DNA from: Flectonema sp. DT1601
Lineage: Eukaryota
Length of the DNA: 64,000 nucleotides
NCBI GenBank assembly: GCA_964019425.1
Contig: OZ025792.1
Span: 1,054,001-1,118,000 of the forward strand
Reading direction: 5' to 3'
In this document: in pieces, positions 50,531 to 64,000 of the stretch
Layout of the letters: each line of letters starts with the position of its first letter
Numbering within the stretch: the stretch's first letter is position 1
Notes under the pieces: model-generated
Database searches by the model: none
What the model saw: the letters and a program-made list of their open reading frames with translations, nothing else
Told to the model about the DNA's origin: nothing
Program-made: the position numbers and the translations under genes

Positions 50531-52751
50531 GGTTTCAATGCTAGGCCTTGTAGTAGCCACAGCCGAGGAAGGCTGAGTTGCAGCCCTCTTCAGCGAAGAA
50601 AGCAAGGGGGACACTGCGGTGTCAGGCCTGTCCTACTCATCGCATTTGCCCTTCTCAGCCAAGGGAACCACGTCAACATGGTTATTTCTTTTACCATTTA
50701 ACACAGTCCCCCTATTTAATTTTTAGTTAGTATTAATAAATATCAGTCAATCAAAAAAAAGGCAAAATTTCGTAGGACAACAAACAAGTTGGTTTCGGGT
50801 TAAGATTAAAAACAATCTTTCTTCGGAGTTAATTTTTAGTTAGTTAGTTAGTTAAAAAGAAATTTCTTTTACTGAACGGCGAAAAGAAAAATCGTCACTT
50901 TCAGCGAGCGAAAATGACACTATCAGGCACCCCAAAATCCCTTATCATAATGAAAAAAAAGAAAACTCAATCGAGGCAGAGATAAGGAATCGCTAAACAC
51001 AGGCAAAAAAGTCTTTGGAATCTATGAGAATGCAAGATAATATAAAATGACAAAAAAAAAAATAGCAAAAGCATTCAGTTTTTTCAGTTCTTTCTTTCCT
51101 GTATAAGTCTCAACTTGTTTCTCTATTAAACTACCTTAACAACTTATATAACCAAAGCAATCTCCTGAATCTGTAGAATAGTACCCCGTATGTACGCAGA
51201 TCTGGGTTACCTCCACACATGAGGTGCGAATGTGACTACATATTTCTCTACAACTAAATTGCTTAAACTCTACAAGTCGATAATTAAAAACGAAATAAGA
51301 ATTCATGCGCCTGTTATCTGGTTATTGACAGCTTGCATGATTTGGTACCAATTATTTGTTCCTTTTATTGTTGCCAAAATGGCTTATGTTGCTTGTTTAA
51401 CTCCAACACACTGAAGTTGTAAATTCAATTTAAAAAAAAAAAAATAGCACTCTGAAAAGGGAGAGGAAAAACTGATGATCCGTAAGGTTGACTCGTGCAA
51501 TCCTGTCTTAACAGTTATGTATAAGAAAAGAGAGAAGAACGTAAATTAGGGATTTACTTTATACTCCAGATTTTAGTAAAATTATATTTTATATACCATA
51601 ATTACACTCGCTCACAGGTACAAAAATTTACCTTTTTTTTTTGGTTCAGCTTTTAGATGCAGTTCTGCTTCAAGAAGTCAGGTCACCGACAGATCACCTG
51701 TGAATTCATCAACAAGCCGGACTGTCCTTCGAGATAGTTGGTGACTTCAACCCGTTCTCCCTCTGTCTGCACCTGCGACAGCTTCAGCTATGTCACTCAC
51801 TCAGGAACTTTGTCGGATCTCTTTGCGCCGATCCCTTCTTGCCGAAATATCTGTAGTGTATTTACGACTCTAGGGTATATCTCCCTCGTTGAACAGCCAG
51901 TAGTGGTAGGGCCTCTAATAGCAGCAGCGACGTAGGGCAACGTGCCCCATCCAAAAACCGTGCAACCGGCAGCACTTCAGAAGACCCAACCACACTCACC
52001 AGCAGGGCACATAAGACATTCCATAGGAAGTACATGGTTGCTTAAGAAGAAGTACAGAGACACCTGCTATATAACCCTGCGGGACAACTTCTTGCTGTAT
52101 GAATTATTGTTGTATCTCAGGTACGAAATTTAATTATGGGTATAAAATATGGTTTTAGGAGTATAAATGTATTTTTTTTCATTTATTTGGGATGATTTTC
52201 TCTCTAAATAAAATAGTCGAAACAGAAAATTATAGAATGAAGAATATAATGCACAGATTGAAAAAAATAATACGGGGGATCTGCGCAATTCTCAACAACA
52301 AAATACCCGAGAAACTTAATAAATAAGTCTCTGCAGAGCGGGTGAATGCTTCCCTCCGTGAACGAAACGAATTAAAGAAGCGATAAACCGTACTGCGAGG
52401 CGTTTATTCCATCAAAGGATTAACGAAAAGAAAAGAAAGAAGAAATAAAGACAAACGTTTGTATTAATTTATAAAAACAACGTTATAAAAAACAAAATAA
52501 TATAACCTTCCGTAGTGAACTCAACGGAGTGGTCAAAGATGAGATAAAGTAACACGAGCGACGAACAAAAAAAAAAGACTTCCCCGAACCGAATAGCGTT
52601 GCAATAGCTGAAACATGATTTAAATCGAACTATAAAAAAGAAAAGTTACGAAAAACATTATTCTGCTGTTCCATTTAATATCGTAGATTACGCAGTTTCA
52701 AGTTTTAAGACTTGTTTTATACCATTTTAAGACATTAGTTAGCGGTCAAAA

Positions 52752-52966
52752 AGCCACCGAGTACCAGTTATATCCCCAAAGAGAATCAGGTAGCTCTTCA
52801 AGGATCCCTAATACTACGGTAGCAGATTGTGAACCTAATCCCAAGAGGATTATATTGTTAGTCTCCACACGAGGCATACTAAATCAAGATATCTGTAACC
52901 TCAATACTTCAACGTATCACTAGCAAGAAAGAATATTGAAAAACATGAAATAAATAAATAAGGAAA
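52752..52966. repeat. ~215-bp repeat, second copy 59451-59670 immediately upstream of the LINE
   Basis: Near-identical by direct reading. Confidence 0.8.
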
Positions 52967-54855
52967 CTAGGAGATGAGATTGGGGGTTCTCAATTTCTTT
53001 CGTTTAAGATTCTTATCTCCAGGGGAAACTTTCGCCGAGAGATGAGATCTCATTTCTATAAACGGGTGGTATGACGTGCAAGAGGACAACAGTTCTCTGT
53101 AGGGTGACCTAGCTCTGCACACAATACCGTACTTTGTACTCAGTAAAAGTTCCAGAGAGAACACTACCAGGACTTGAATCATAACTCAACTCTTCTCGTT
53201 GTATCAAGACTTGTGCTCTATTAATGGTGGTAATGGAGCCCTGCTATCAGGCTCCTTCATTGGTGTAATTTATGGAAACTTTGGAGGCTACTTGAAAATA
53301 TAATTTTTCGCTCAGGCCATCGGTTTTTTCAAACCTTAAGTTAAAATTCAAAAATTTAAAAACTTTCGAGTGGAATCAAAAGTTTTCCCTTTACGTAAAA
53401 CATAATCAAACACGTTTTTTTTTTTTTTTTAAGCCTAGGAAGCCAAAAGCCAGGAAAAGCTCACAGAGTAACAGTTATATCGCTACCAGCAACCGTGAGA
53501 CTCTCACAGACGATAAGAGACGTAGAATAACCTGGAACAAATGACTACCTAAACCCACCGTCCACGCGAGCAGACAGTGTTAGAGACGGCTGATAACGCC
53601 AATTTTCGCCAAAGAGAGGGAGAACACGCCTTTTATACCGCCACACCACAAAGATAAAAAAAACATGACAGAGGGAAATACAAGATATTAATATTGGAAC
53701 GGGCTTACCGAAGCAATAGAAAGAAACAATGCAACAACCTGACAACACTAATAACAAAACTAATACTGAAGGAATAGAATCAAAAGGAAATTCATATGAC
53801 AGCAAGAGAGCCATGTTATGAAAATATTCATTTGAATATCATGTAGTCATAGCTGATTGGACTTCATAATCACACTTGGTATTTATTAGGTGAACAAAAG
53901 GGAGACAAAATAAGAAATTATCAAAAAAACATCGGATCTTACCTTCAGGGTATTAAATGCGATGGTGTATAAAATGAAATGGGGGAGACTTGGATGGGGG
54001 GGGGGGACCTTTGATACGATACGAAAAGATTTATCTGGGGGGTAACTTGATTCTAATATTAAATGGAAAGCAACTTGAAACTGGCAAAAACGAGAATAGG
54101 GTTCGGCCAAACCTGGTTGCAATATAAGAAATCAACAGTTGGTATCGATAAAAAATCCCATATGTGCTGTCGAATATGGAGATTCGGGGGCCACGTACTA
54201 CAGGTTGAGCGCCCCATGCCCTGTAGCCCGTTACAGTTTAAAATAGTATTCCTTCACACTTCAAAGGTAAATAAATATTAAAGGAAAATTAAAAAAAGAA
54301 AACTATTTTTGCAAAAATAATAAAAGAAATAAAAAATAAAAATAAAATATAAATTATTTCTGGTTCGTAGCACACTACCAGTGGAGCACATCTCGCAATT
54401 AGAGGGGGGGGGACCCTCAGGGGGGGGACTTGGATAAATAAATCAAGGTTGGGGTTTGTATGTTCGATTTTGTAAAAATTACAACTGTGTTGTATCATAA
54501 AAACATAAAGATAATTTAACATTAGTTTTAGTTACAGTGACTAAGGGTGATGCGCAACTTAGCATAATAAAGTAACTATTTAGGTTTCGAGAGGAATCCA
54601 TATATATCGTACCTCTATTCTCTCTCATCGGTGTAGAAGTAAGTCAGTCAAATGTTGAGACTCATTCCAGTTTGCAGGACTGGAATGTAGTTACTTTAAG
54701 TTTCATGTTCATAATAAAAAGCATATTCCTTAATGTTACTTGTTCGAAATGGGGGTATGGCTCAAAGACAACTCGAATCTTCAAAGACTTGGGGCAGCAA
54801 GAAAAGAAGAACAAGACAAGAAGTGTAATTAATCACAATTGATGAATGATAATAA

Positions 54856-57495
54856 CTAAATCCCAATTATCTTGGAACTTCTACGATTCCCATCTTTAAA
54901 AGAATCCCCATCCAGGAATTCTTGTCTCATTAAAGAAAGCTCCAAAGAAGCTTCCCCTGTTGGAAAATTCTTCATCGTCAACACTGAACCAGAATTCGAT
55001 GTCCCTGAAAACGAAGCCAACGGATGCATCGATGGCAACGGCAACGGCGACAACGCATCACTCATCGACAATCCCAAACTCGATCTCATCGGCATTGACT
55101 CGCTTACTACAGAAGTCTCATCAAGCTTCTTATTCTTTTCCCAATGTCTTTGTTGTACTCGAGTTCGAATACCCTTGCACAGAATGTATCCTTCAACAAG
55201 AACATCAATTCCTGACTTAACTATTAAAATAATTACGGAAGCAAATAGCAAAGCAGAAGCAATTTGGAAACCGTAGTGTCCGGTGTTCTCTTCGTAGTAA
55301 CCTGCCGCCATGAAGACAAGAGCAGCCGCCTGGAGACCGAGGAGGACGAAGTCGACGGCGCTGTCACGTGCTCGACAGTGCGGCCACAGAATTGCTTCGA
55401 GTACAAGGAGAATCAGAAAGAGAAATCCTTCAAAAAGTTTCTTGTGTCCGCACTGAATTAAAGTTCTGGTATTGAGAGACTCCATAGCACTGATCGCAAG
55501 CATCGAAGCAAACTCCACAATACTAAACCAAACTACTTCCTGACGAAATGATCTAATCACCGCACTGTAACGATTCACCCAATGAAGCTCAACATGATTG
55601 CTGACCCATTCTCCAGGTCCCATCAACAGTCGCTTCAATCCATAACGAGCATCGTCAGCGTACACTGCCTGACTAGGAACTCCCTTCCTGCATTCTCTAA
55701 AGATAACTATTGGAACAGCAACACAACCACAACACGTAACAAATCCTATTATAAAGTGAAATGGCGTATTCGGGTGGCTCACAAGAGACATCCCACCTTG
55801 TGTCGTACCTTGGTATAAGAATTGGAAGACGAACAACGGAGCCGAAGGAAATCTCAGTAATCCCTGAGTGTCCAAACCATTGAACAACGTTGGGGCACAA
55901 CTCGTACCTCCCCGTTCTGCTATCTTCAACATGAAGAAACACAATACTGCAAACCCGAATGATATCATCACATTCCCAGCCACCATTCCAAGCGCAGAAC
56001 TGCCTCCAATTTTCCACTGTGTCGGGTGTAGAGGTCGAGGGTACTCCCTCGATGAATTATTCTCATTTCCAGCACGGCAGCTTCCAGATATCGCAACCAA
56101 CCGCAAGGCTGGTCCCGCTGATGCACCGGCTCCCAAAGCAGAAGCCGCCGCAGCTGCCGAACCCACCTCTTCAACGGTCTCGGTCGTTTTCTTGTCGATT
56201 GCTGGTGGAACTTCTGTTGGAGGTGCGGCAGTCTCAGGCACGCTAGTGGAAGGAACAGGAGTAGGAGGTAATGTTGGCACAGCGGTTGGTACAGCAGTTA
56301 GTATTACAGGAACGGAAGTTGGGACTGCAGTTGGAACAGCTGTCGGTACGGTCGTCGGTATGGCTGTTGGAACAGCTGTTGTACCAATTTGTCGGGCTTT
56401 TGGAACTGCGGTCGGAACAGCAGTAGGGACAGCAGTCGGTATTGCAGTTGGAACTGTTGTTGGTACAGCCGTTGGTACTGCGGTTGGCAGTGCGGTTGGT
56501 ACTGCGGTTGGTACAGCCGTAGTTGGCAGTGCTACCGTAACACCTACACTTACCATAGGTGGTTTTTGGAAGAGATTACACAAACCAGTAGATTTCTTGA
56601 TGGTGTAAATATAGTTTGGGACTGCAATAATTTCATCAGCAACAATAGCTACGGTTTCGGCAATTCCACCGTCGAAGACTGCAAGACTGGGACCGATACC
56701 GTAAGCTACTCCTGGAGTGTCTCCATGTTGACAGGTTACGTCTAACATATTACCAGGGTTAGTTATTACACGGCTAGTTAACGAAGTAGCCAATCCACCG
56801 AAGAAAGTATTGTCTCCCACGGCAAATACATATCCGTTGCAGGCAAAAATGCGTTTGAGCCTGTTCACGGCTTTGTAAGTTGACGACGTAGATGATTTAC
56901 CGATTAGTTCACTGACAGTTGGAGCATTGGTTGATACCCTACTGACGACAAATACCTTTTGAGAGGACTCGTCTACGGTAATCGATCCGATGTCGCCGTT
57001 TTTTAAGAAGCTTCCTGAGCTGTCTACAGTTCCCATGGCAATGTTTGCCATTTCGAAGTATATTATCCCTTCGTTTTGACATGCGCCATAGATAGTAGTT
57101 CCCTGAGCAGCGAGTTCAAGACAACTTCCAGTGTATGGAAAATCCATCACATTCGCAATGTCAATTGCACCACCAGCAAGAATAGGAATTACATGTAGCT
57201 TACCAGGTTCAGCAGCAACCAAATAAGGTGTTCCTCCGATAGTTATTGAAGTAGCAGTAATAATGTTTGAAGTGTAACTACTTGCTACTGTCGTAAAGCA
57301 CTGATTAATTTCAGGATCAAGCTGTCTGATCCAAGTACTAGTAAATATGTACATCCACTTGTCATAAACAGCCATTGTTTCTATTGCACCGTATCCAACA
57401 GTACAAACCAAAGATGTTTTGTAGCATGTTACTAATTGCACCACAGTCAGAAGGATGAAAAACGTCCCCACATGCCTGAAGGTACTTGCCGCCAT
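54856..57495 (-). CDS. Surface multi-pass membrane glycoprotein, paralog 7 (~879 aa)
   Basis: Intact ORF with the shortest stalk and a divergent ectodomain. Confidence 0.9.
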   Translation of the reverse strand: MAASTFRHVGTFFILLTVVQLVTCYKTSLVCTVGYGAIETMAVYDKWMYIFTSTWIRQLDPEINQCFTTVASSYTSNIITATSITIGGTPYLVAAEPGKLHVIPILAGGAIDIANVMDFPYTGSCLELAAQGTTIYGACQNEGIIYFEMANIAMGTVDSSGSFLKNGDIGSITVDESSQKVFVVSRVSTNAPTVSELIGKSSTSSTYKAVNRLKRIFACNGYVFAVGDNTFFGGLATSLTSRVITNPGNMLDVTCQHGDTPGVAYGIGPSLAVFDGGIAETVAIVADEIIAVPNYIYTIKKSTGLCNLFQKPPMVSVGVTVALPTTAVPTAVPTALPTAVPTAVPTTVPTAIPTAVPTAVPTAVPKARQIGTTAVPTAIPTTVPTAVPTAVPTSVPVILTAVPTAVPTLPPTPVPSTSVPETAAPPTEVPPAIDKKTTETVEEVGSAAAAASALGAGASAGPALRLVAISGSCRAGNENNSSREYPRPLHPTQWKIGGSSALGMVAGNVMISFGFAVLCFFMLKIAERGGTSCAPTLFNGLDTQGLLRFPSAPLFVFQFLYQGTTQGGMSLVSHPNTPFHFIIGFVTCCGCVAVPIVIFRECRKGVPSQAVYADDARYGLKRLLMGPGEWVSNHVELHWVNRYSAVIRSFRQEVVWFSIVEFASMLAISAMESLNTRTLIQCGHKKLFEGFLFLILLVLEAILWPHCRARDSAVDFVLLGLQAAALVFMAAGYYEENTGHYGFQIASALLFASVIILIVKSGIDVLVEGYILCKGIRTRVQQRHWEKNKKLDETSVVSESMPMRSSLGLSMSDALSPLPLPSMHPLASFSGTSNSGSVLTMKNFPTGEASLELSLMRQEFLDGDSFKDGNRRSSKIIGI

Positions 57496-59820
57496 ACTGT
57501 GTGGGTGGCTGTGAGTGAAGAACATGTAAAACATAATACTCAAATAACTTCGTCAATCAATTCTACTCTGATGAGGGGCATCTTGTCAATTGAAACTTCT
57601 GCATAATTGTGATAACTGATGCAAAGATGAGAATAAGAGTAAAATAATTTCATTACCTTGTCTTCAACAGAGTTAGAAAGATTGGGTGTAGACTCCCAAT
57701 AACCACTACTGGGAATCAGTTGCGTGGTACAAATGAATAATATTAAGAATGTTCTCTCTGTTGAATGCGAACTTTGCACAATCCAAGCAAAGGTTAGCAG
57801 GACGTACGCTGTTCGTGTGAATGGAAGTGATATCTTTTTGAACAAGAATTCTGCTGATCAGCAGTTTGTTCGTCTCCAGAGTTCGTCACTGCGGCTTTCC
57901 TCGGCCTTCTTTTCCCGTTTCTTCCATTCACGGAATTGTTTATGGAATTAATCCAACGTTGCTGCATATAATGAGTGCAACCCAATCCGTAACCGTTTCC
58001 GAAGACTCAGTATGGATTGTTGAATTAGCTTCAACTGAAGTGATGTAATATAATTTATAGAAAAATAGACAAATTTTAGTTTTAACTATTGAACTCTAAA
58101 ATAAAGAATAAAATAAACGAAAATTGAAAAAATATAAAAATATTAAACTAAAATAAAACAATAGTCAGTAATCATTAGTTATCAGTCAATCAAACAAATT
58201 CGTCGGACAAAAGACAAATAAATGAGTAGAAATTTTGTTTCTTTTATTATTCATCGTAATTAACATAACTCAGCTTAAATGGTAAATAAATAACCATATT
58301 GACGTGGTCTCTTTGCTGAGAAATAGTGAAAACACGAAATAAATTACTCTTCGGTTCCGTATAACGCTGTGGAAAACGAAGTCTCAGGCCATAATCTTAT
58401 ACCACTTGTCCTCAGTAAGTTCTAAGGGACTTAATTCTATATTGAAGTTGCTATCGTTCTAAGACAAAAAAATCATCGGAGTTCTCCAGGATTGGGAGCA
58501 ATGCTTATTTTCTTTTGTTTAATTTAATTCCTTTTATCTTTGACGGTCTGCCCCTTTCCGTATTAAAGTCGAGTTATTAATTGAGTTCTTCATCTATTTT
58601 GCGTTTAATTTTATTCTTAGCATACCATCAATAGTCCTGTATTCACAGGTGTCATTGTAACATCCTTTTCAGAGTGAAATTCTATAGTTCGGTACATCTT
58701 GTCAAAATGATCGAATGGGGGTCTTTGATCTTTTTTGTCTTTAAGAATGTCACGAATGATCATGGATTTAAATGACACTAGTGCAACAATAAAGTGTGCC
58801 ATCCTTGTCTTTTCTTTCTAGGATTCAAATAAGATGCAACCGATACATGAAACGTTTCTCGGGATAATAAAAAGAGTTGTAGAGTTATAAAAAAAAGCGT
58901 GGCCAGAGCCTTTTTTTCCCCTTTCTTTTTTCCCTTCATGCTTGTGAAAAATTAATTAAATGGCAAAATATATGGCTGTGCCAGCCGAGGACAATAAAAC
59001 GCATTTAAAGTAATCATCGCGTTTGCCCTTCTCAGCAAAGGGAAGGGCCGAGTTTATGTTTACGGGATGAAACTTTGACAATGTAAAAACAAATAACAAC
59101 TTTTAGGTATTAATACAAAATTAATATCAAGTGCGACCGAAAGAAATATTTGAAAAAATTAACTAACGAGTGGTGCATGAGTTTATGTTTATGGGAGGGA
59201 TGAATAAAAAATTAAAAAGGTTTCGAATCACACTCAACTATTAATATGCAGAAGGTTTTTGAGCCTTTAAGGCCGCCAGACGCTTCTTTTAACACCTGAC
59301 AGTAGTTGACTAGCGTCTGTGAAGGACTACGAGGCGTTATTCCATCAAAGGAATAACGAAAAGAAAAGAAAAAAGAATTAGAGACCAACATTTGTATCAA
59401 TTTAAATACAACGCGAAATCATTAGTAAATAAGCTAGCGGGTCCAACAAACCACCGAGTACGTTATATCCCCAAAGAGAATCAGGTAGCTCTTCAAGAAT
59501 TCCTAATACTACGGTAGCAGATTGTGAACCTAATCCCAAGAGGATTATATTGTTAGTCTCCACACGAGGCATACTAAATCAAGATATCTGTAACCTCAAT
59601 ACTTCAACGTATCACTAGCAAGAAAGAATATTGAAAAACATGAAATAAATAAATAAATAAATAAGGAAACCTGATGATAGGATAGAGTGGGATTTCTTAT
59701 TTGGGAAAACCTACAGATCCACCCCCAGGTTTGGGGAAACGTACACTACGGTCACGGCCTTGTGTAACTTTTTTGACCCCTGGATATGTGTTTAAATCCG
59801 CAAAATCGAAGACGACCTAC

Positions 59821-59836
59821 TTTCTGTACTTTATTG
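59821..59836 (+). other. Spliced-leader-derived motif TTTCTGTACTTTATTG in the LINE 5' UTR
   Basis: Exact match to the conserved 3' 16 nt of the kinetoplastid/diplonemid SL exon (recalled from memory); sense orientation, 64 nt upstream of the ORF1 ATG. Confidence 0.75.
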
Positions 59837-59900
59837 ATTTCCTACCATTACCTGGTGAGAGTCGATTTTGTGCGGGTTTTCTGACAGACATAAAACTATA

Positions 59901-61325
59901 ATGAGCAGTTGTAAGGAGCTGCTTTTGGATGTGATGCGGTTAGTACAAGAAGTGGAGAAAGGACTAGCAGGAGAAGAAAAGAGAAGGAGGGTTTTGACTC
60001 TCACGATGAGAGTGCTGGAGCAGCTGACGGAGGACTCCGGAGAGAAACAAGGAGAGTCGTCAAAGAGAAAGACGACAGAGCAAGAGAGGAAGGGGAAGGA
60101 GTCCGGGGGACAACGACAGGAAGCGGCGAGCACGGTGAGGGATGGAAATGATGGAGGCCCGACGCCAACTACCAACAACAAGAAACCCACTCTGCCAGAG
60201 TGGTACATTCACGCAGCGTGGGCTAAAGCAACACCTACGCTTAAATTCTCAGAAGCAATCGATGCCTCCAAAAACAACGCGGACGGACTCGTGCTCATCA
60301 GCTCAAAGGCTGATTATGAAGCACTGAAGCAAACACGAACGAAGGGCGACTGGACTGCCATCTCAAAGTCTAAACTGTTTAAAACAACAGTCCCAGTCGC
60401 ACTTCCAGTCGTAAAGAAGTGCGGAACCTGCGTCATTCGTAGGGTATTTGTCACCCCGATTTGTGGCAAAGATTTCACTGCCGCAAGAGAAGACGCCATC
60501 GAGCCACCACAGCCGGACCCAGTTCTATTCGTACAAGACTGGAGTAAATCAGCAGAGAGCACTCTCACCACTAAGGTGAAAGAATTAATTAAAAAGTGGG
60601 AGCTGAAGACATCGCCCTTCGGATTTAAAAAATGCGATATGCACACATCTATGGCGATCCGTGTGCCAAACTTCAGAATTTCTGAAATTCTGGAATACAA
60701 CAACAGCGACACCTCCAGTGAGAAGAGAGATCTATTCATCAGAAACCCATCTTGGTCTAATGGCCAAGACTCTTGGAACACAGTTCAGTTCGTTAAGGAC
60801 TTGGGCTTCAAAGCGGTGCTGGGCAAACTTTCAGTTCTTTCAGCAATCAAAGGTAGCTTCTACATCACGAAGTTCCGAGAGTGCTTTGGGCTGAAAGTTC
60901 AACCCGGGTTTACTCAAAAAGTGAGAGAATCACTCGGGGATTCTCTGAAACCCGCACTGCCGACTGGTCAGCGTTTTATAATTAAATCACTGGCTATTAA
61001 GAAGTTCACGACGCAACAGATCAGCGATCACCTGTTGCACGCATACAAGTGGAGTCACACAATTGTGGCTAGTTTTCATAAGGGAGGCAACAAAACGTTA
61101 ATTGCAATCTCTGAATCGGTTCCATCACCAAGCTTCGTCGACATGGGTAAAGATGCGTACCTTGTAATCAACATGGAAACTAAAAGAGAAAAGCCGGTCA
61201 AATTGGGGCCGACCTTCAACCCGGGCAAGGGTCCAGTTATATCTGGTGATCTGAAGCGACACTGTGCTGAAGAACCAACCGATACTACTGAAACGACTGA
61301 TGTGGAAATGGATAATTCAAACTGA
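59901..61325 (+). CDS. LINE ORF1 protein (474 aa from ATG 59901)
   Basis: Long basic ORF directly upstream of and in frame with the APE-RT ORF; charged helical N-terminus and acidic C-terminal tail. Confidence 0.8.
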   Translation: MSSCKELLLDVMRLVQEVEKGLAGEEKRRRVLTLTMRVLEQLTEDSGEKQGESSKRKTTEQERKGKESGGQRQEAASTVRDGNDGGPTPTTNNKKPTLPEWYIHAAWAKATPTLKFSEAIDASKNNADGLVLISSKADYEALKQTRTKGDWTAISKSKLFKTTVPVALPVVKKCGTCVIRRVFVTPICGKDFTAAREDAIEPPQPDPVLFVQDWSKSAESTLTTKVKELIKKWELKTSPFGFKKCDMHTSMAIRVPNFRISEILEYNNSDTSSEKRDLFIRNPSWSNGQDSWNTVQFVKDLGFKAVLGKLSVLSAIKGSFYITKFRECFGLKVQPGFTQKVRESLGDSLKPALPTGQRFIIKSLAIKKFTTQQISDHLLHAYKWSHTIVASFHKGGNKTLIAISESVPSPSFVDMGKDAYLVINMETKREKPVKLGPTFNPGKGPVISGDLKRHCAEEPTDTTETTDVEMDNSN

Positions 61326-64000
61326 CTTGACAAACGAACACCGTCAACTTCAAATTCTAAAAATGACTCACATCATAGTAAAGTTCTGGTGAAGCCGACT
61401 ACTGTAACAGCACCGACTATCTCTCAAACTGAAAAAGAACTGACCCGAAGTTTATTACTGCTGGCAGGCGACGTTGAACGCAACCCTGGACCTGAAAATT
61501 CGTTACTCTCAGTGTTGAGCTGGAACTGTAGATCGATAAGTCAGAAGGGGTCTTATATTCAAAGACTCCTTTCTCACTACTCGCCGGATGTACTGTGCTT
61601 ACAGGAAACCTGGTCGAAGGAACACATTTCGCACCCTGGCTATTATACATATAGGAAGGACAGAAATACAAAAGGTGGTGGCATTATAATAATGGCAAAG
61701 AGATGCTTCTCACAAGGAATCAGTGATGAAGAATTGTTTTCGAGAACAAGCGGTATCGAAGCTATGATGCTGAATGTTGGTGGTGTCAATGTTATTAACG
61801 TTTACGCTCCCCCTGGGTGTATCATTAGAGAAGATGATCTTCCGATCACAACGAAGTCTATTATTGCGGGCGACTTCAACGCACACAACCTCGTCTGGTC
61901 TACCAGGACAACCAAATCTGGTAAAGAATTATTTAATTGGGCGGATCGCAATGACGTTCTCGTAGCAAACAGACCTGGTCAAATAACTCGGCCCAAACAC
62001 GACATTCCTGGCGGTGGTACCTCACCTGACGTTATATTCTTTAAAGGATCAATTGTATTAGAAGAATTTTCAATCATAAATGAAGACAGTAAACATAACT
62101 CGGATCATCGACCTCTACTCGCTATCTTCGACACAATGGCTCACCTCTCTCAAGCAACAGTTGGAGCAAGGAAACGAACTGTCTGGGATTTCAAATCTAC
62201 AAACTGGAGTGCTTTCAGACAGCAACTTGATAGAAGAATTGATAGGGCTAAGTTCTCGGATGATGCCACTGGTAATGTTGGATTATTAAATAACATAATA
62301 CATGAAGTAGCTGCGAGGAACGTGCGGAGGAGAATCTTATTTAAGGGCAAGCGCCGACGTAAGTGGAAGACCTCTTCACCTGAATCTATAAAATCAAAAG
62401 GTAGTCACCTGAAAGACCAACTGAGGAAGGGGAACAACTTTAACTTCGCCTTCAAGAAGATTAAAGAACTCCAACAGGACGCTGGTAAGGACATCAGCGT
62501 ATCAAATATATCTGAGAACGATTTACCTGCAGCATTTCTGGACCTCTTTGTGGCCGATGGGGATGCTGCTAAACTCGAAGCCCCTTCATTGAAGAAAGAA
62601 GACTTGGAATTGGACATCTGTTGTGACTTCACAGATACCGAGATATCAGCAGCAATTAAAAACCTGAAGCCTCGCAAAGCAGCAGGCCCTGACGGTATTC
62701 ACAACGAAATGCTTAAGAACTTATCTCAGAAGGCAGTTGACTGTTTATTAAAGGTGATCAATTCTTCGTGGAGATCCTCCAATGTTCCATATCTTTGGAA
62801 ACAGGGGTTAATCAAACCGATGTTCAAGTCGGGCAAACCGCGGAACGATATTAAAAGCTACAGACCAATCACACTCACTTCGGTTGTTGGCAAACTGGCT
62901 GAGAGGTTGGTGTACGACAGGCTCATGCATTGGCTTACCGAAAACTCAGCACTCAGTCCGATTCAAGCTGGCTTCAGACGGGGCAGAAATACCTGCGAAC
63001 AAATCACAATTCTGGTGGACGCCATGGTAAACAACCACACGAAGGGGAGGAGGTCAGTCTTCTTGTCATTCGATTTCACAGCAGCCTTCGATAGGATTAA
63101 CCATCGAATTTTACTTTCAAAACTACAAAGAATGGGCATCCCAACCTTCATCGTTCGATGGATAACGGACTTTCTAACCAATAGGAAGGTCAGAGTTGAT
63201 GCAAATGGACATTTCAGTAAGTTTCGTACGCTGTCAAAAGGAGTGCCTCAAGGATCAATCTTAGGCCCACTACTCTATTTAATATATGTTGACGATCTGT
63301 GTAAGATTCTCTCACAAGAGAAGGAAACGACTTTGACCGCACTGTATGCAGACGACACCGCTTGTGCAGTATTTGGCTCGACCATGGACGAAGCAATCTC
63401 AAACGCTCAACGAATACTTGACATCGTTGACAAGTGGTGCCGTGATAATGACATGGCACTTTCAGTCTCCAAGACTTGCGCTCTGAAAATGGATATTCAA
63501 TCGAAAGAAGTAACCCTGACTGATACTAGCGACCGCGAACTCTTATTCTCAAAATCACTGGAAGTACGTTCGTTAGATATTGACTATTTTGATCTAGACA
63601 GCGTGATCAACACGACGACGACAAGGCCCACTTTACTGAGTGGTGAAACGATCCTCGAAGTAGAGGGGAAACCCATCAGGACTCAACAAGAATTAGAAGA
63701 TTTACTGATGTTGAACATCCACGACGAGATGAATGTCAAAGCGAAAATTAAAATTGCCTTCCTACTGCCGATCACGGACTCAGTGAAATATCTGGGTGTT
63801 TACATTGATAACAGGCTCAGGTTTGATAAACAGTTAGAGAAAATACACGACGAACTGAAGAAAGGGATCTCCCTTCTGCAGTGCCTCCAGCCATATGAAT
63901 TGGACTACAAGACCCTAAAGATGGTTAAAAACTTGTACGTGACAGCGAGGATTTCCTATGCACTGGACAGCTTTGGTTGGTTGCTCAACCAGCATAAAAC
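61326..64000 (+). CDS. LINE ORF2: linker + 2A peptide + AP-endonuclease + reverse transcriptase (partial; no stop in the window)
   Basis: Manually translated and open throughout. APE motifs: SWNCRS, LCLQETW, NVYAPP, AGDFNAH, TSPDV, SDHRP. RT motifs: KAAGPDGI, YRPITLTS, QAGFR, DFTAAFD, GVPQGSILGP, YADD (63345-63356), KYLGV (63786). Confidence 0.95.
61434..61493 (+). other. 2A-like StopGo (ribosome skipping) peptide KELTRSLLLLAGDVERNPG/P
   Basis: Exact D(V/I)ExNPG-P consensus with an upstream Leu-rich segment, in frame, a few residues before APE motif I. Confidence 0.9.

Follow-up and report, generated by a model that had tools for sequence, protein, structure and literature searches.

A spliced leader tail at the 5' boundary of a LINE-type retrotransposon as a probable relic of trans-spliced element RNA

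Results and discussion

In the 64,000-nt stretch of DNA analysed here (the window), a LINE-type retrotransposon carries at its 5' boundary an exact 16-nt copy of the 3' end of a euglenozoan spliced leader (SL). On balance, this SL tail is best read as the relic of a trans-spliced RNA of the element, marking the 5' end of this copy at a tRNA-like target, a reading that we hold to be fairly probable. Counted in its favour were the start of the SL tail at the point where homology to two other loci breaks, the survival in the window of positions +1 to +3 of that tRNA-like target, and the lack of an HDV-like ribozyme fit. By analogy, the locus would work like an SL-relict retrocopy, except that its carrier is a retrotransposon. 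The features are compiled in Table 1.

Table 1 Features of the element and its surroundings, in positions of the window
Feature	Position	Strand	Basis
Antisense neighbour of the element, closest of seven tandem host genes that encode mucin-like membrane proteins	54856..57534	-	Reading frames, clusters
Head, a repeated 115-nt segment, read as target-site flank	59700..59814	+	Protein matches of P0197/P0199 and P0198
Probable first three bases (+1 to +3) of the tRNA-like gene split by the insertion; junction 59817/59818	59815..59817	+	Start of the P0197 cloverleaf
Junction bases TAC	59818..59820	+	Sequence compared with the Diplonema sp. SL
SL tail, exact 16 nt, Diplonema-type/euglenozoan SL 3' end	59821..59836	+	Sequence, shuffles, Markov models, SL comparison
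5' UTR of the element; predicted pairing with the SL tail, hairpin 59824-59875	59837..59900	+	Folding
ORF1, 474 aa, no Pfam family	59901..61325	+	Identical to a protein on 7 contigs
ORF2, in frame after the ORF1 TGA, runs off the window	61326..64000	+	Identical in 869/869 residues to a 1305-aa protein on 6 contigs
Putative 2A-like motif	61452-61493	+	DVERNPGP at 61470-61493
APE domain	about 61515-62117	+	PF03372/PF14529
RT domain	about 62844-63515	+	PF00078

The spliced leader tail

On the forward strand, CTAC (59817-59820) is followed by TTTCTGTACTTTATTG (59821-59836) and then by AT (59837-59838). The preliminary description of this DNA had reported this motif in sense orientation, the AT in place of a GT donor and the lack of a further occurrence in the window. 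Each was read again in the sequence, and the 16-mer is the sole match in the 64 kb even with up to two mismatches tolerated. It equals the 3' end of the SL of Diplonema sp., which may not be the SL of the host (Bitar et al. 2013; PMC3795323, supplement, excerpt); several kinetoplastid SLs end in the same 16-mer (PMC3795323, excerpt). The match starts directly after the last internal AG of the Diplonema sp. SL and stops exactly at the SL 3' end, 64 nt before ORF1, so that 16 of 39 nt are retained and the first 23 nt of the SL are missing. Sense orientation, a position upstream of an ORF and the lack of a GT donor are features of SL-relict retrocopies, all present here.

A coincidental match is very improbable. 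The exact 16-mer occurred in none of 100 shuffles of the window, and Markov models of order 1-5 gave an expectation of 1.2-2.4e-4 per window and 2-4e-7 per 200 nt; an SL suffix of at least 10 nt was absent from the rest of the window. Scanning many windows will yield some 16-mers, and 9 of the 123 metagenome matches listed (see below) lie internally without SL context. Against chance, however, stand the expectation of about 3e-7 per 200 nt, the right lineage, the sense strand and the coincidence with the homology break.

Metagenome contigs from JGI were scanned for the exact 16-mer, giving at least 123 matches at 120 loci or more. Among the matches listed, 107 of 123 were located within 25 nt of the record end, and CAG preceded the 16-mer in all 70 listed near-end matches with three or more bases in front, as in SL-capped transcripts. 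The 16 internal matches listed were made up of six following CAG, one tandem second copy and the nine without SL context. TAC preceded none of the 123 matches listed, and hence no SL variant resembling that of the window was seen among them. Likewise, no relatives of the 11 ORF1/ORF2 queries were encoded at the 120 SL-motif loci listed. The junction bases TAC may be SL bases minus the internal AG, may have been copied from within the SL tail by a slip-back, or may be untemplated; CTAC fits the SL if exactly the acceptor AG is deleted. A search for relatives of the antisense ORF that ends in the SL tail returned no protein.

The SL cap plays a role in translation, and the preliminary description had offered as one explanation a retained SL mimic, an internal SL-like piece that permits translation without trans-splicing. 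This explanation found no support and is the least probable of those considered. The position 64 nt before the ORF1 start would suit it, as would the translation, though poor, of unspliced RNAs from the L1Tc promoter (PMC1874656, excerpt). However, the piece consists of 16 of 39 nt, lies internally and lacks the capped 5' part (the first 23 nt), the tail is predicted to be paired rather than exposed, and none of the present observations links the 16-mer to translation.

Left flank and insertion site

The evidence on other loci is at the protein level, the stop-free frame 59686-59898 serving as a proxy for DNA; the proxy search is blind to copies with an identical 5' end, as the window's own frame is not called as a protein. 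Two proteins were found among two candidates and a third by cluster look-up. P0197 and P0199, encoded on contigs of 126 and 663 kb, agree with the window frame from 59701 in 39 of 39 residues, and the first base of the window that is incompatible with them is 59818, three nucleotides before the exact SL match. Duplication or allelism of one locus may account for the two. In P0198, the sharing covers 59705-59793, with small indels, and then ends. Upstream, the sharing reaches to 59700 (P0199) and 59703 (P0198), the three sequences beyond being different; homology of the left flank to 52734-52972 stops at 59667.

Past the break, P0197 and P0199 back-translate to a full tRNA cloverleaf scoring 35/35 (21 pairs and 14 conserved positions). 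Among 20 start residues tried, this best cloverleaf begins only at the codon equal to window positions 59815-59817, the next best score being 31. Null searches, which are a looser upper bound, reached a maximum of 33 in 12,000 of the 16,814 stop-free peptides of the window and of 32 in 8,000 shuffles; the tRNA pattern was first recognised by eye and scored afterwards. All eight tightly constrained pairs can pair, the bases of the D- and T-loops are mostly fixed by the genetic code, and a T run then follows the tRNA-like sequence. At the level of back-translation, the cloverleaf thereby has the A and B boxes and the T-run terminator of a tRNA gene. The anticodon is NGC. tRNA-Ala needs G3:U70, but the position equivalent to 70 is G, and the sequence is therefore called tRNA-like rather than a typical tRNA-Ala. 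ARAGORN reported no tRNA in the window apart from four relaxed-threshold calls elsewhere in it.

As read from the proteins, P0197 and P0199 lack the SL tail at the junction. Most simply read, both would represent the empty site, and the element would start at 59818-59821, after the first three bases of the tRNA-like gene; a copy of the element was thus likely inserted between bases 3 and 4 of a multicopy tRNA-like gene. The start of the SL at the homology break, together with the euglenozoan host, supports the proposal of the preliminary description that the motif is a relic of a reverse-transcribed trans-spliced RNA. That description had placed the motif inside the 5' UTR; the motif is real, and its better place is the 5' boundary of the element. 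The segment of about 120 nt upstream of it does recur at other loci, as had been considered for further copies of the LINE, and yet in the two of the three with a visible continuation it leads to the tRNA-like gene, not to a LINE.

The head folds ordinarily (z +0.55), and a 20-mer taken from it matched none of the viral contigs searched. Together with the tRNA-like gene, the head may make up a mobile unit of recent origin whose 5' end is fixed (P0197, P0198, P0199; 59700-59817). Further assignments for this region were considered and rejected. The head is, at the protein level, unlikely to be the element's own 3' end: no protein examined reads into it, the tail of P0199 fits none of the five ORFs in any frame beyond the background length, and three like 5' boundaries contradict random truncation. 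Divergent snRNA genes driven by tRNA boxes are a trypanosome arrangement; such a gene was dismissed here as the sharing stops too soon upstream. For a hammerhead core noticed by eye at 59671, there were neither fitting stems nor an Rfam match. The 71-codon stop-free frame at 59686-59901 contains no ATG, its TAA overlaps the ATG of ORF1 (TAATG), and it is probably due to chance, since it spans the inferred junction.

The retrotransposon, its relatives and the host

The order of an APE and an RT domain identifies an APE-type non-LTR retrotransposon (LINE), whose best match among solved structures is LINE-1 ORF2p (E 3e-21). CRE, SLACS and CZAR elements use a restriction-like endonuclease, whereas the element described here has an APE; this, and the lack of the SL 5' half upstream, bears out the earlier view that it is not of the CRE/SLACS type. 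RNase H exceeded the Pfam cut-off in two of five full-length ORF2 proteins scanned, not in the ORF2 type of the window.

ORF1 is identical to P0169 (0/474 differences) and ORF2 to P0121 over its visible part (0/869 differences), and by this sequence identity the family is young and multicopy. The ORF2 cluster has 37 members, the ORF1 cluster 18, and two sister ORF2 clusters comprise 101 and 42. Many of the 15 ORF2 and 15 ORF1 members listed are shortened, as expected of dispersed copies with 5' truncations. Copies with an intact ORF1 start are present on at least 14 contigs. The truncated copy P0182, one of eight listed members with an ORF1 start, ceases to match the window some 20 nt ahead of the ATG, which indicates that 5' ends vary within the family; its upstream peptide matches nothing in the window. 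In the 199 proteins examined, a translation of the SL beside element sequence was not encountered, which is a weak test.

The closest named relatives are transcripts of Flectonema neradi, with identities of 52% and 46% for ORF2 and of 44% for ORF1, followed by relatives with about 36% over a third of the query. An ORF2 profile retrieved two distant RT loci from prokaryote genomes, and an ORF1 profile no relative among 116 pattern matches in metagenome contigs. The model of ORF1 is of low confidence (pLDDT 50), shows repeated small alpha/beta units and matched no fold at E 0.001 and no Atlas entry. Residues of about 205-425 (60510-61180) appear in this low-confidence model as two or three alpha/beta units, the first with an RRM-like order of strands and helices.

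ORF2 has no in-frame ATG before the 2A-like motif, and all 15 listed ORF1 members stop at the same place. As judged from the reading frames, expression of ORF2 would need read-through and 2A release, or re-initiation. A short out-of-frame ORF with its ATG at 61363 ends at a TGA that overlaps a GTG at 61389. Two Flectonema isoforms of one ORF2, P0004 and P0150, differ just 5' of the 2A-like motif, one of them having a methionine there, and this difference possibly reflects alternative 5' ends for ORF2.

The element lies antisense to the local gene array, as the preliminary description had stated: seven tandem genes occupy 1445-57534 on the minus strand. They encode proteins of 892-1100 aa with a variable N-terminal domain, a stalk of PTAV repeats and a conserved multi-pass C-terminal part that resembles DGF-1_C-like clusters; between the genes, short dispersed repeats make up mosaic spacers. 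Clusters similar to the array genes are mostly euglenozoan, one having DGF-1_C on 45% of its members, while the top entry is mostly Streptophyta. The protein relatives of the element and of the array genes make a euglenozoan, diplonemid host likely. In Diplonema papillatum, essentially all mRNAs carry the SL and genes are organised in unidirectional arrays (PMC10161547, excerpt).

The 5' UTR and its pairing with the SL tail

The segment 59821-59903 folds with -19.7 kcal/mol (z -2.8), a value reached by 1 of 200 shuffles; the reverse strand (z +0.7) and the UTR alone (z +0.2) are ordinary. This fold was equalled in 0 of 2,000 shuffles of the SL tail only, in 25 of 2,000 of the UTR only and in 22 of 2,000 of both. 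The energy gained by SL-UTR pairing, -9.7 kcal/mol, compares with -2.8 +/- 2.3 kcal/mol in 107 natural SL-mRNA ends from other organisms, one of which pairs as strongly. The p value of about 0.01 for the hairpin is post hoc, one of four segments folded, and the stems include six G-U pairs. The predicted SL-UTR pairing is a lead, hinting at an SL that recurs at the junction. If the pairing is real, the UTR has evolved beside the SL. AG sites in the UTR end at 59859, 59861 and 59887. The last belongs to a T/C run ending in CAG (59877-59887), which resembles a splice acceptor and is separated by 13 nt from the ATG of ORF1. Pyrimidines account for 75% of the stretch formed by the SL tail and the 17 nt after it.

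A template jump, in which the SL piece came from a free SL exon or another mRNA and the RNA of the element itself was not trans-spliced, is highly unlikely. LINE chimeras with small RNAs are known from the parts of the literature consulted, and the irregular TAC bases have the look of an untidy junction; on the other side, the join is exactly at the SL 3' end, as splicing produces, and the pairing of UTR and SL exceeds that of 106 of the 107 natural SL-mRNA ends.

The hairpin, which links the SL tail to the sequence downstream, would equally suit a decayed piece of an SL RNA gene (59821-59900, exon end and intron with GT changed to AT) that now serves as UTR. A T-rich stretch at 59866-59872, read by eye, which we take to be similar to an Sm motif, points the same way. 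So does the length of 64 nt, near that of the 75-nt intron of D. papillatum (PMC10161547, excerpt). In contrast to the layout of an SL RNA gene (39-nt exon, GT donor, intron of about 75 nt), 16 exact nucleotides are followed here by AT, no GT donor is present, and, compared by eye, the sequence in front of the SL tail agrees with no more than 4 of the first 17 SL bases. Rfam gave two weak and irrelevant matches on 57500-61500, a result to be read with the reservation that Rfam may not hold an SL RNA family. Such an origin is accordingly as improbable as the template jump.

The same arm of the UTR (59862-59880) can form a second helix with the head (59794-59809). Its p value is about 0.01-0.017 by alignment (34 of 2,000 shuffles; 20 of 1,984 window tiles) and 0.07 by duplex energy (145 of 2,000 shuffles), and its ensemble pair probability is about 0.15-0.24 versus about 0.65-0.75 for the main SL helix. 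A search of 59650-59905 for HDV-like ribozymes gave no match with our own descriptor, which is uncalibrated on a known ribozyme and matched 3 of 30 shuffles.

These observations bear on a fixed 5' end of the family, which we regard as unlikely, if less so than the preceding alternatives. An ancestral SL-tipped copy would have hit the tRNA-like repeat and captured the 115-nt head as promoter or leader. With their start near 59700, full-length copies would have kept the head, TAC and the SL tail as they were, the lost internal AG blocking re-splicing at that place. The sharp boundary at 59700-59703 in three contexts, the head-UTR helix (p about 0.01-0.017) and the match of CTAC to an SL with exactly the acceptor AG removed agree with this, as does the retention of the 5' promoter by L1Tc and ingi, which stay unspliced (PMC1874656, excerpt). 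The first three of these points were counted against the relic of a trans-spliced RNA, since the boundary of the head also fits the 5' terminus of a mobile element, the head-UTR helix must then be chance and the loss of exactly AG has no explanation. However, both loci with a visible continuation run into the tRNA-like gene and the T run rather than into a LINE, the 39/39 identity of the head to its paralogues would make the capture very recent, and the head has neither an unusual fold nor an HDV-like fit.

Proposed mechanism

If the SL tail is the relic of a trans-spliced element RNA, a precursor RNA of the element would have been trans-spliced at an acceptor just before 59837, yielding a capped, translatable mRNA. 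Target-primed reverse transcription of this mRNA by the ORF2 protein would have come to a halt within the SL, after copying 16-20 nt of it. The end of the cDNA would then have been joined after base +3 of the tRNA-like gene, possibly via one shared C, and at this joining either the internal AG of the SL was lost or three bases were added by slippage. Because the UTR is predicted to fold back on the SL tail, the SL at the junction would be a recurring feature of the mRNAs of the family and probably not a single accident.

The copy itself would depend on read-through transcription from upstream, as whatever the parent had 5' of the acceptor was lost in splicing. The same junction can be spliced repeatedly only if a parent retains its own acceptor, and two kinds of copies are thus predicted: longer, unspliced parents and SL-tipped daughters. 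A relic that keeps CAG would provide an acceptor and gain a second 16-mer in the next round, in the way in which the dinoflagellate DinoRL gain extra SL units (PMC12014239, excerpt). The window has a single 16-mer with no AG before it.

A further-reaching proposal is tentative and in our judgement rather doubtful: a lineage of LINEs without promoter or ribozyme of their own would replicate via trans-spliced mRNA, its UTR having evolved pairing with the SL, so that full-length copies are routinely SL-tipped and insert at tRNA-like genes, sites that offer transcription. The promoter of a LINE occupies the 5' end, the part that a transcript loses on trans-splicing. Such a diplonemid lineage, if true, would be the opposite of the solution of L1Tc and ingi; trypanosome LINEs evade the loss of the promoter by unspliced RNA (PMC1874656, excerpt). 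The SL tail that bounds a young, intact LINE in the sister lineage suggests that the other route works too, and with this element the persistence of mobile DNA under polycistronic transcription can be tested directly. SL tails might also serve as a tag for counting retroposition in diplonemid genomes, as relict SLs do in dinoflagellates. A single aberrant copy, if it proves to be that, would be an ordinary though neat relic.

Comparison with known systems

Similar to the present case, the DinoRL of dinoflagellate retrogenes are 3' parts of the SL in DNA 50-100 nt before the start codon; they comprise the part 3' of the internal AG of the SL, to which the 16-mer is the euglenozoan equivalent. 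In contrast, their carriers are host genes; in the present euglenozoan the retrotransposon itself is the carrier, and its DNA lacks the AG (PMC5585692, PMC12014239, excerpts).

L1Tc and ingi share with the present element the APE-RT architecture, a trans-splicing euglenozoan host and a 2A-like motif before the APE (PMC1874656, PMC5814959, PMC3708506, excerpts), and RNase H, part of the comparison as far as these sources go, is present in close relatives of the element. Motifs of the 2A type before the APE are also described for L2, CR1 and others, mostly single-ORF elements (PMC3708506, excerpt). L1Tc and ingi have one ORF, unlike the element with its separate 474-aa ORF1 (PMC1874656, PMC5814959, PMC3708506, excerpts), and a Pr77 promoter/HDV ribozyme where we found an SL tail in the DNA and no HDV-like fit. 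L1Tc RNA is transcribed from +1 by an internal promoter and stays unspliced (PMC1874656, excerpt), none of 19 ingi/RIME cDNAs carried the SL (PMC1874656, PMC5814959, excerpts), and unspliced RNA was regarded by Heras et al. as a general trait of these trypanosomatid LINEs (PMC1874656, excerpt). The element is kept apart from L1Tc/ingi on the basis of its ORF1 and of the HDV descriptor, the latter uncalibrated on a known ribozyme.

CRE, SLACS and CZAR are likewise non-LTR elements beside an SL sequence in a euglenozoan genome, but their insertion point lies within the SL gene, between nt 11 and 12; no SL gene is involved here, and the target is likely tRNA-like (PMC5814959, excerpt). An association with tRNA genes is known from the TRE elements of Dictyostelium (PMC5006619, PMC5911963, excerpts), comparable to the likely tRNA-like insertion at the one site considered here. 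The literature searched (including PMC8061765 and PMC12621601, in excerpts), mostly without subscription journals, contained no report of an SL-tipped LINE in diplonemids.

Partial SLs were also observed within metagenome records. At L055 (126-157, minus strand), 2,962 nt within the record, a second 16-mer stands behind a partial SL, an arrangement with the appearance of a genomic SL relic that was spliced again; internal partial SLs also occur at L083 and L094. The 5' ends of L021 and L047, both transcript-like contigs, consist of an SL and a second partial SL of 34 nt, followed by long ORFs, and reflect either a relic SL in a euglenozoan mRNA or a library artefact.
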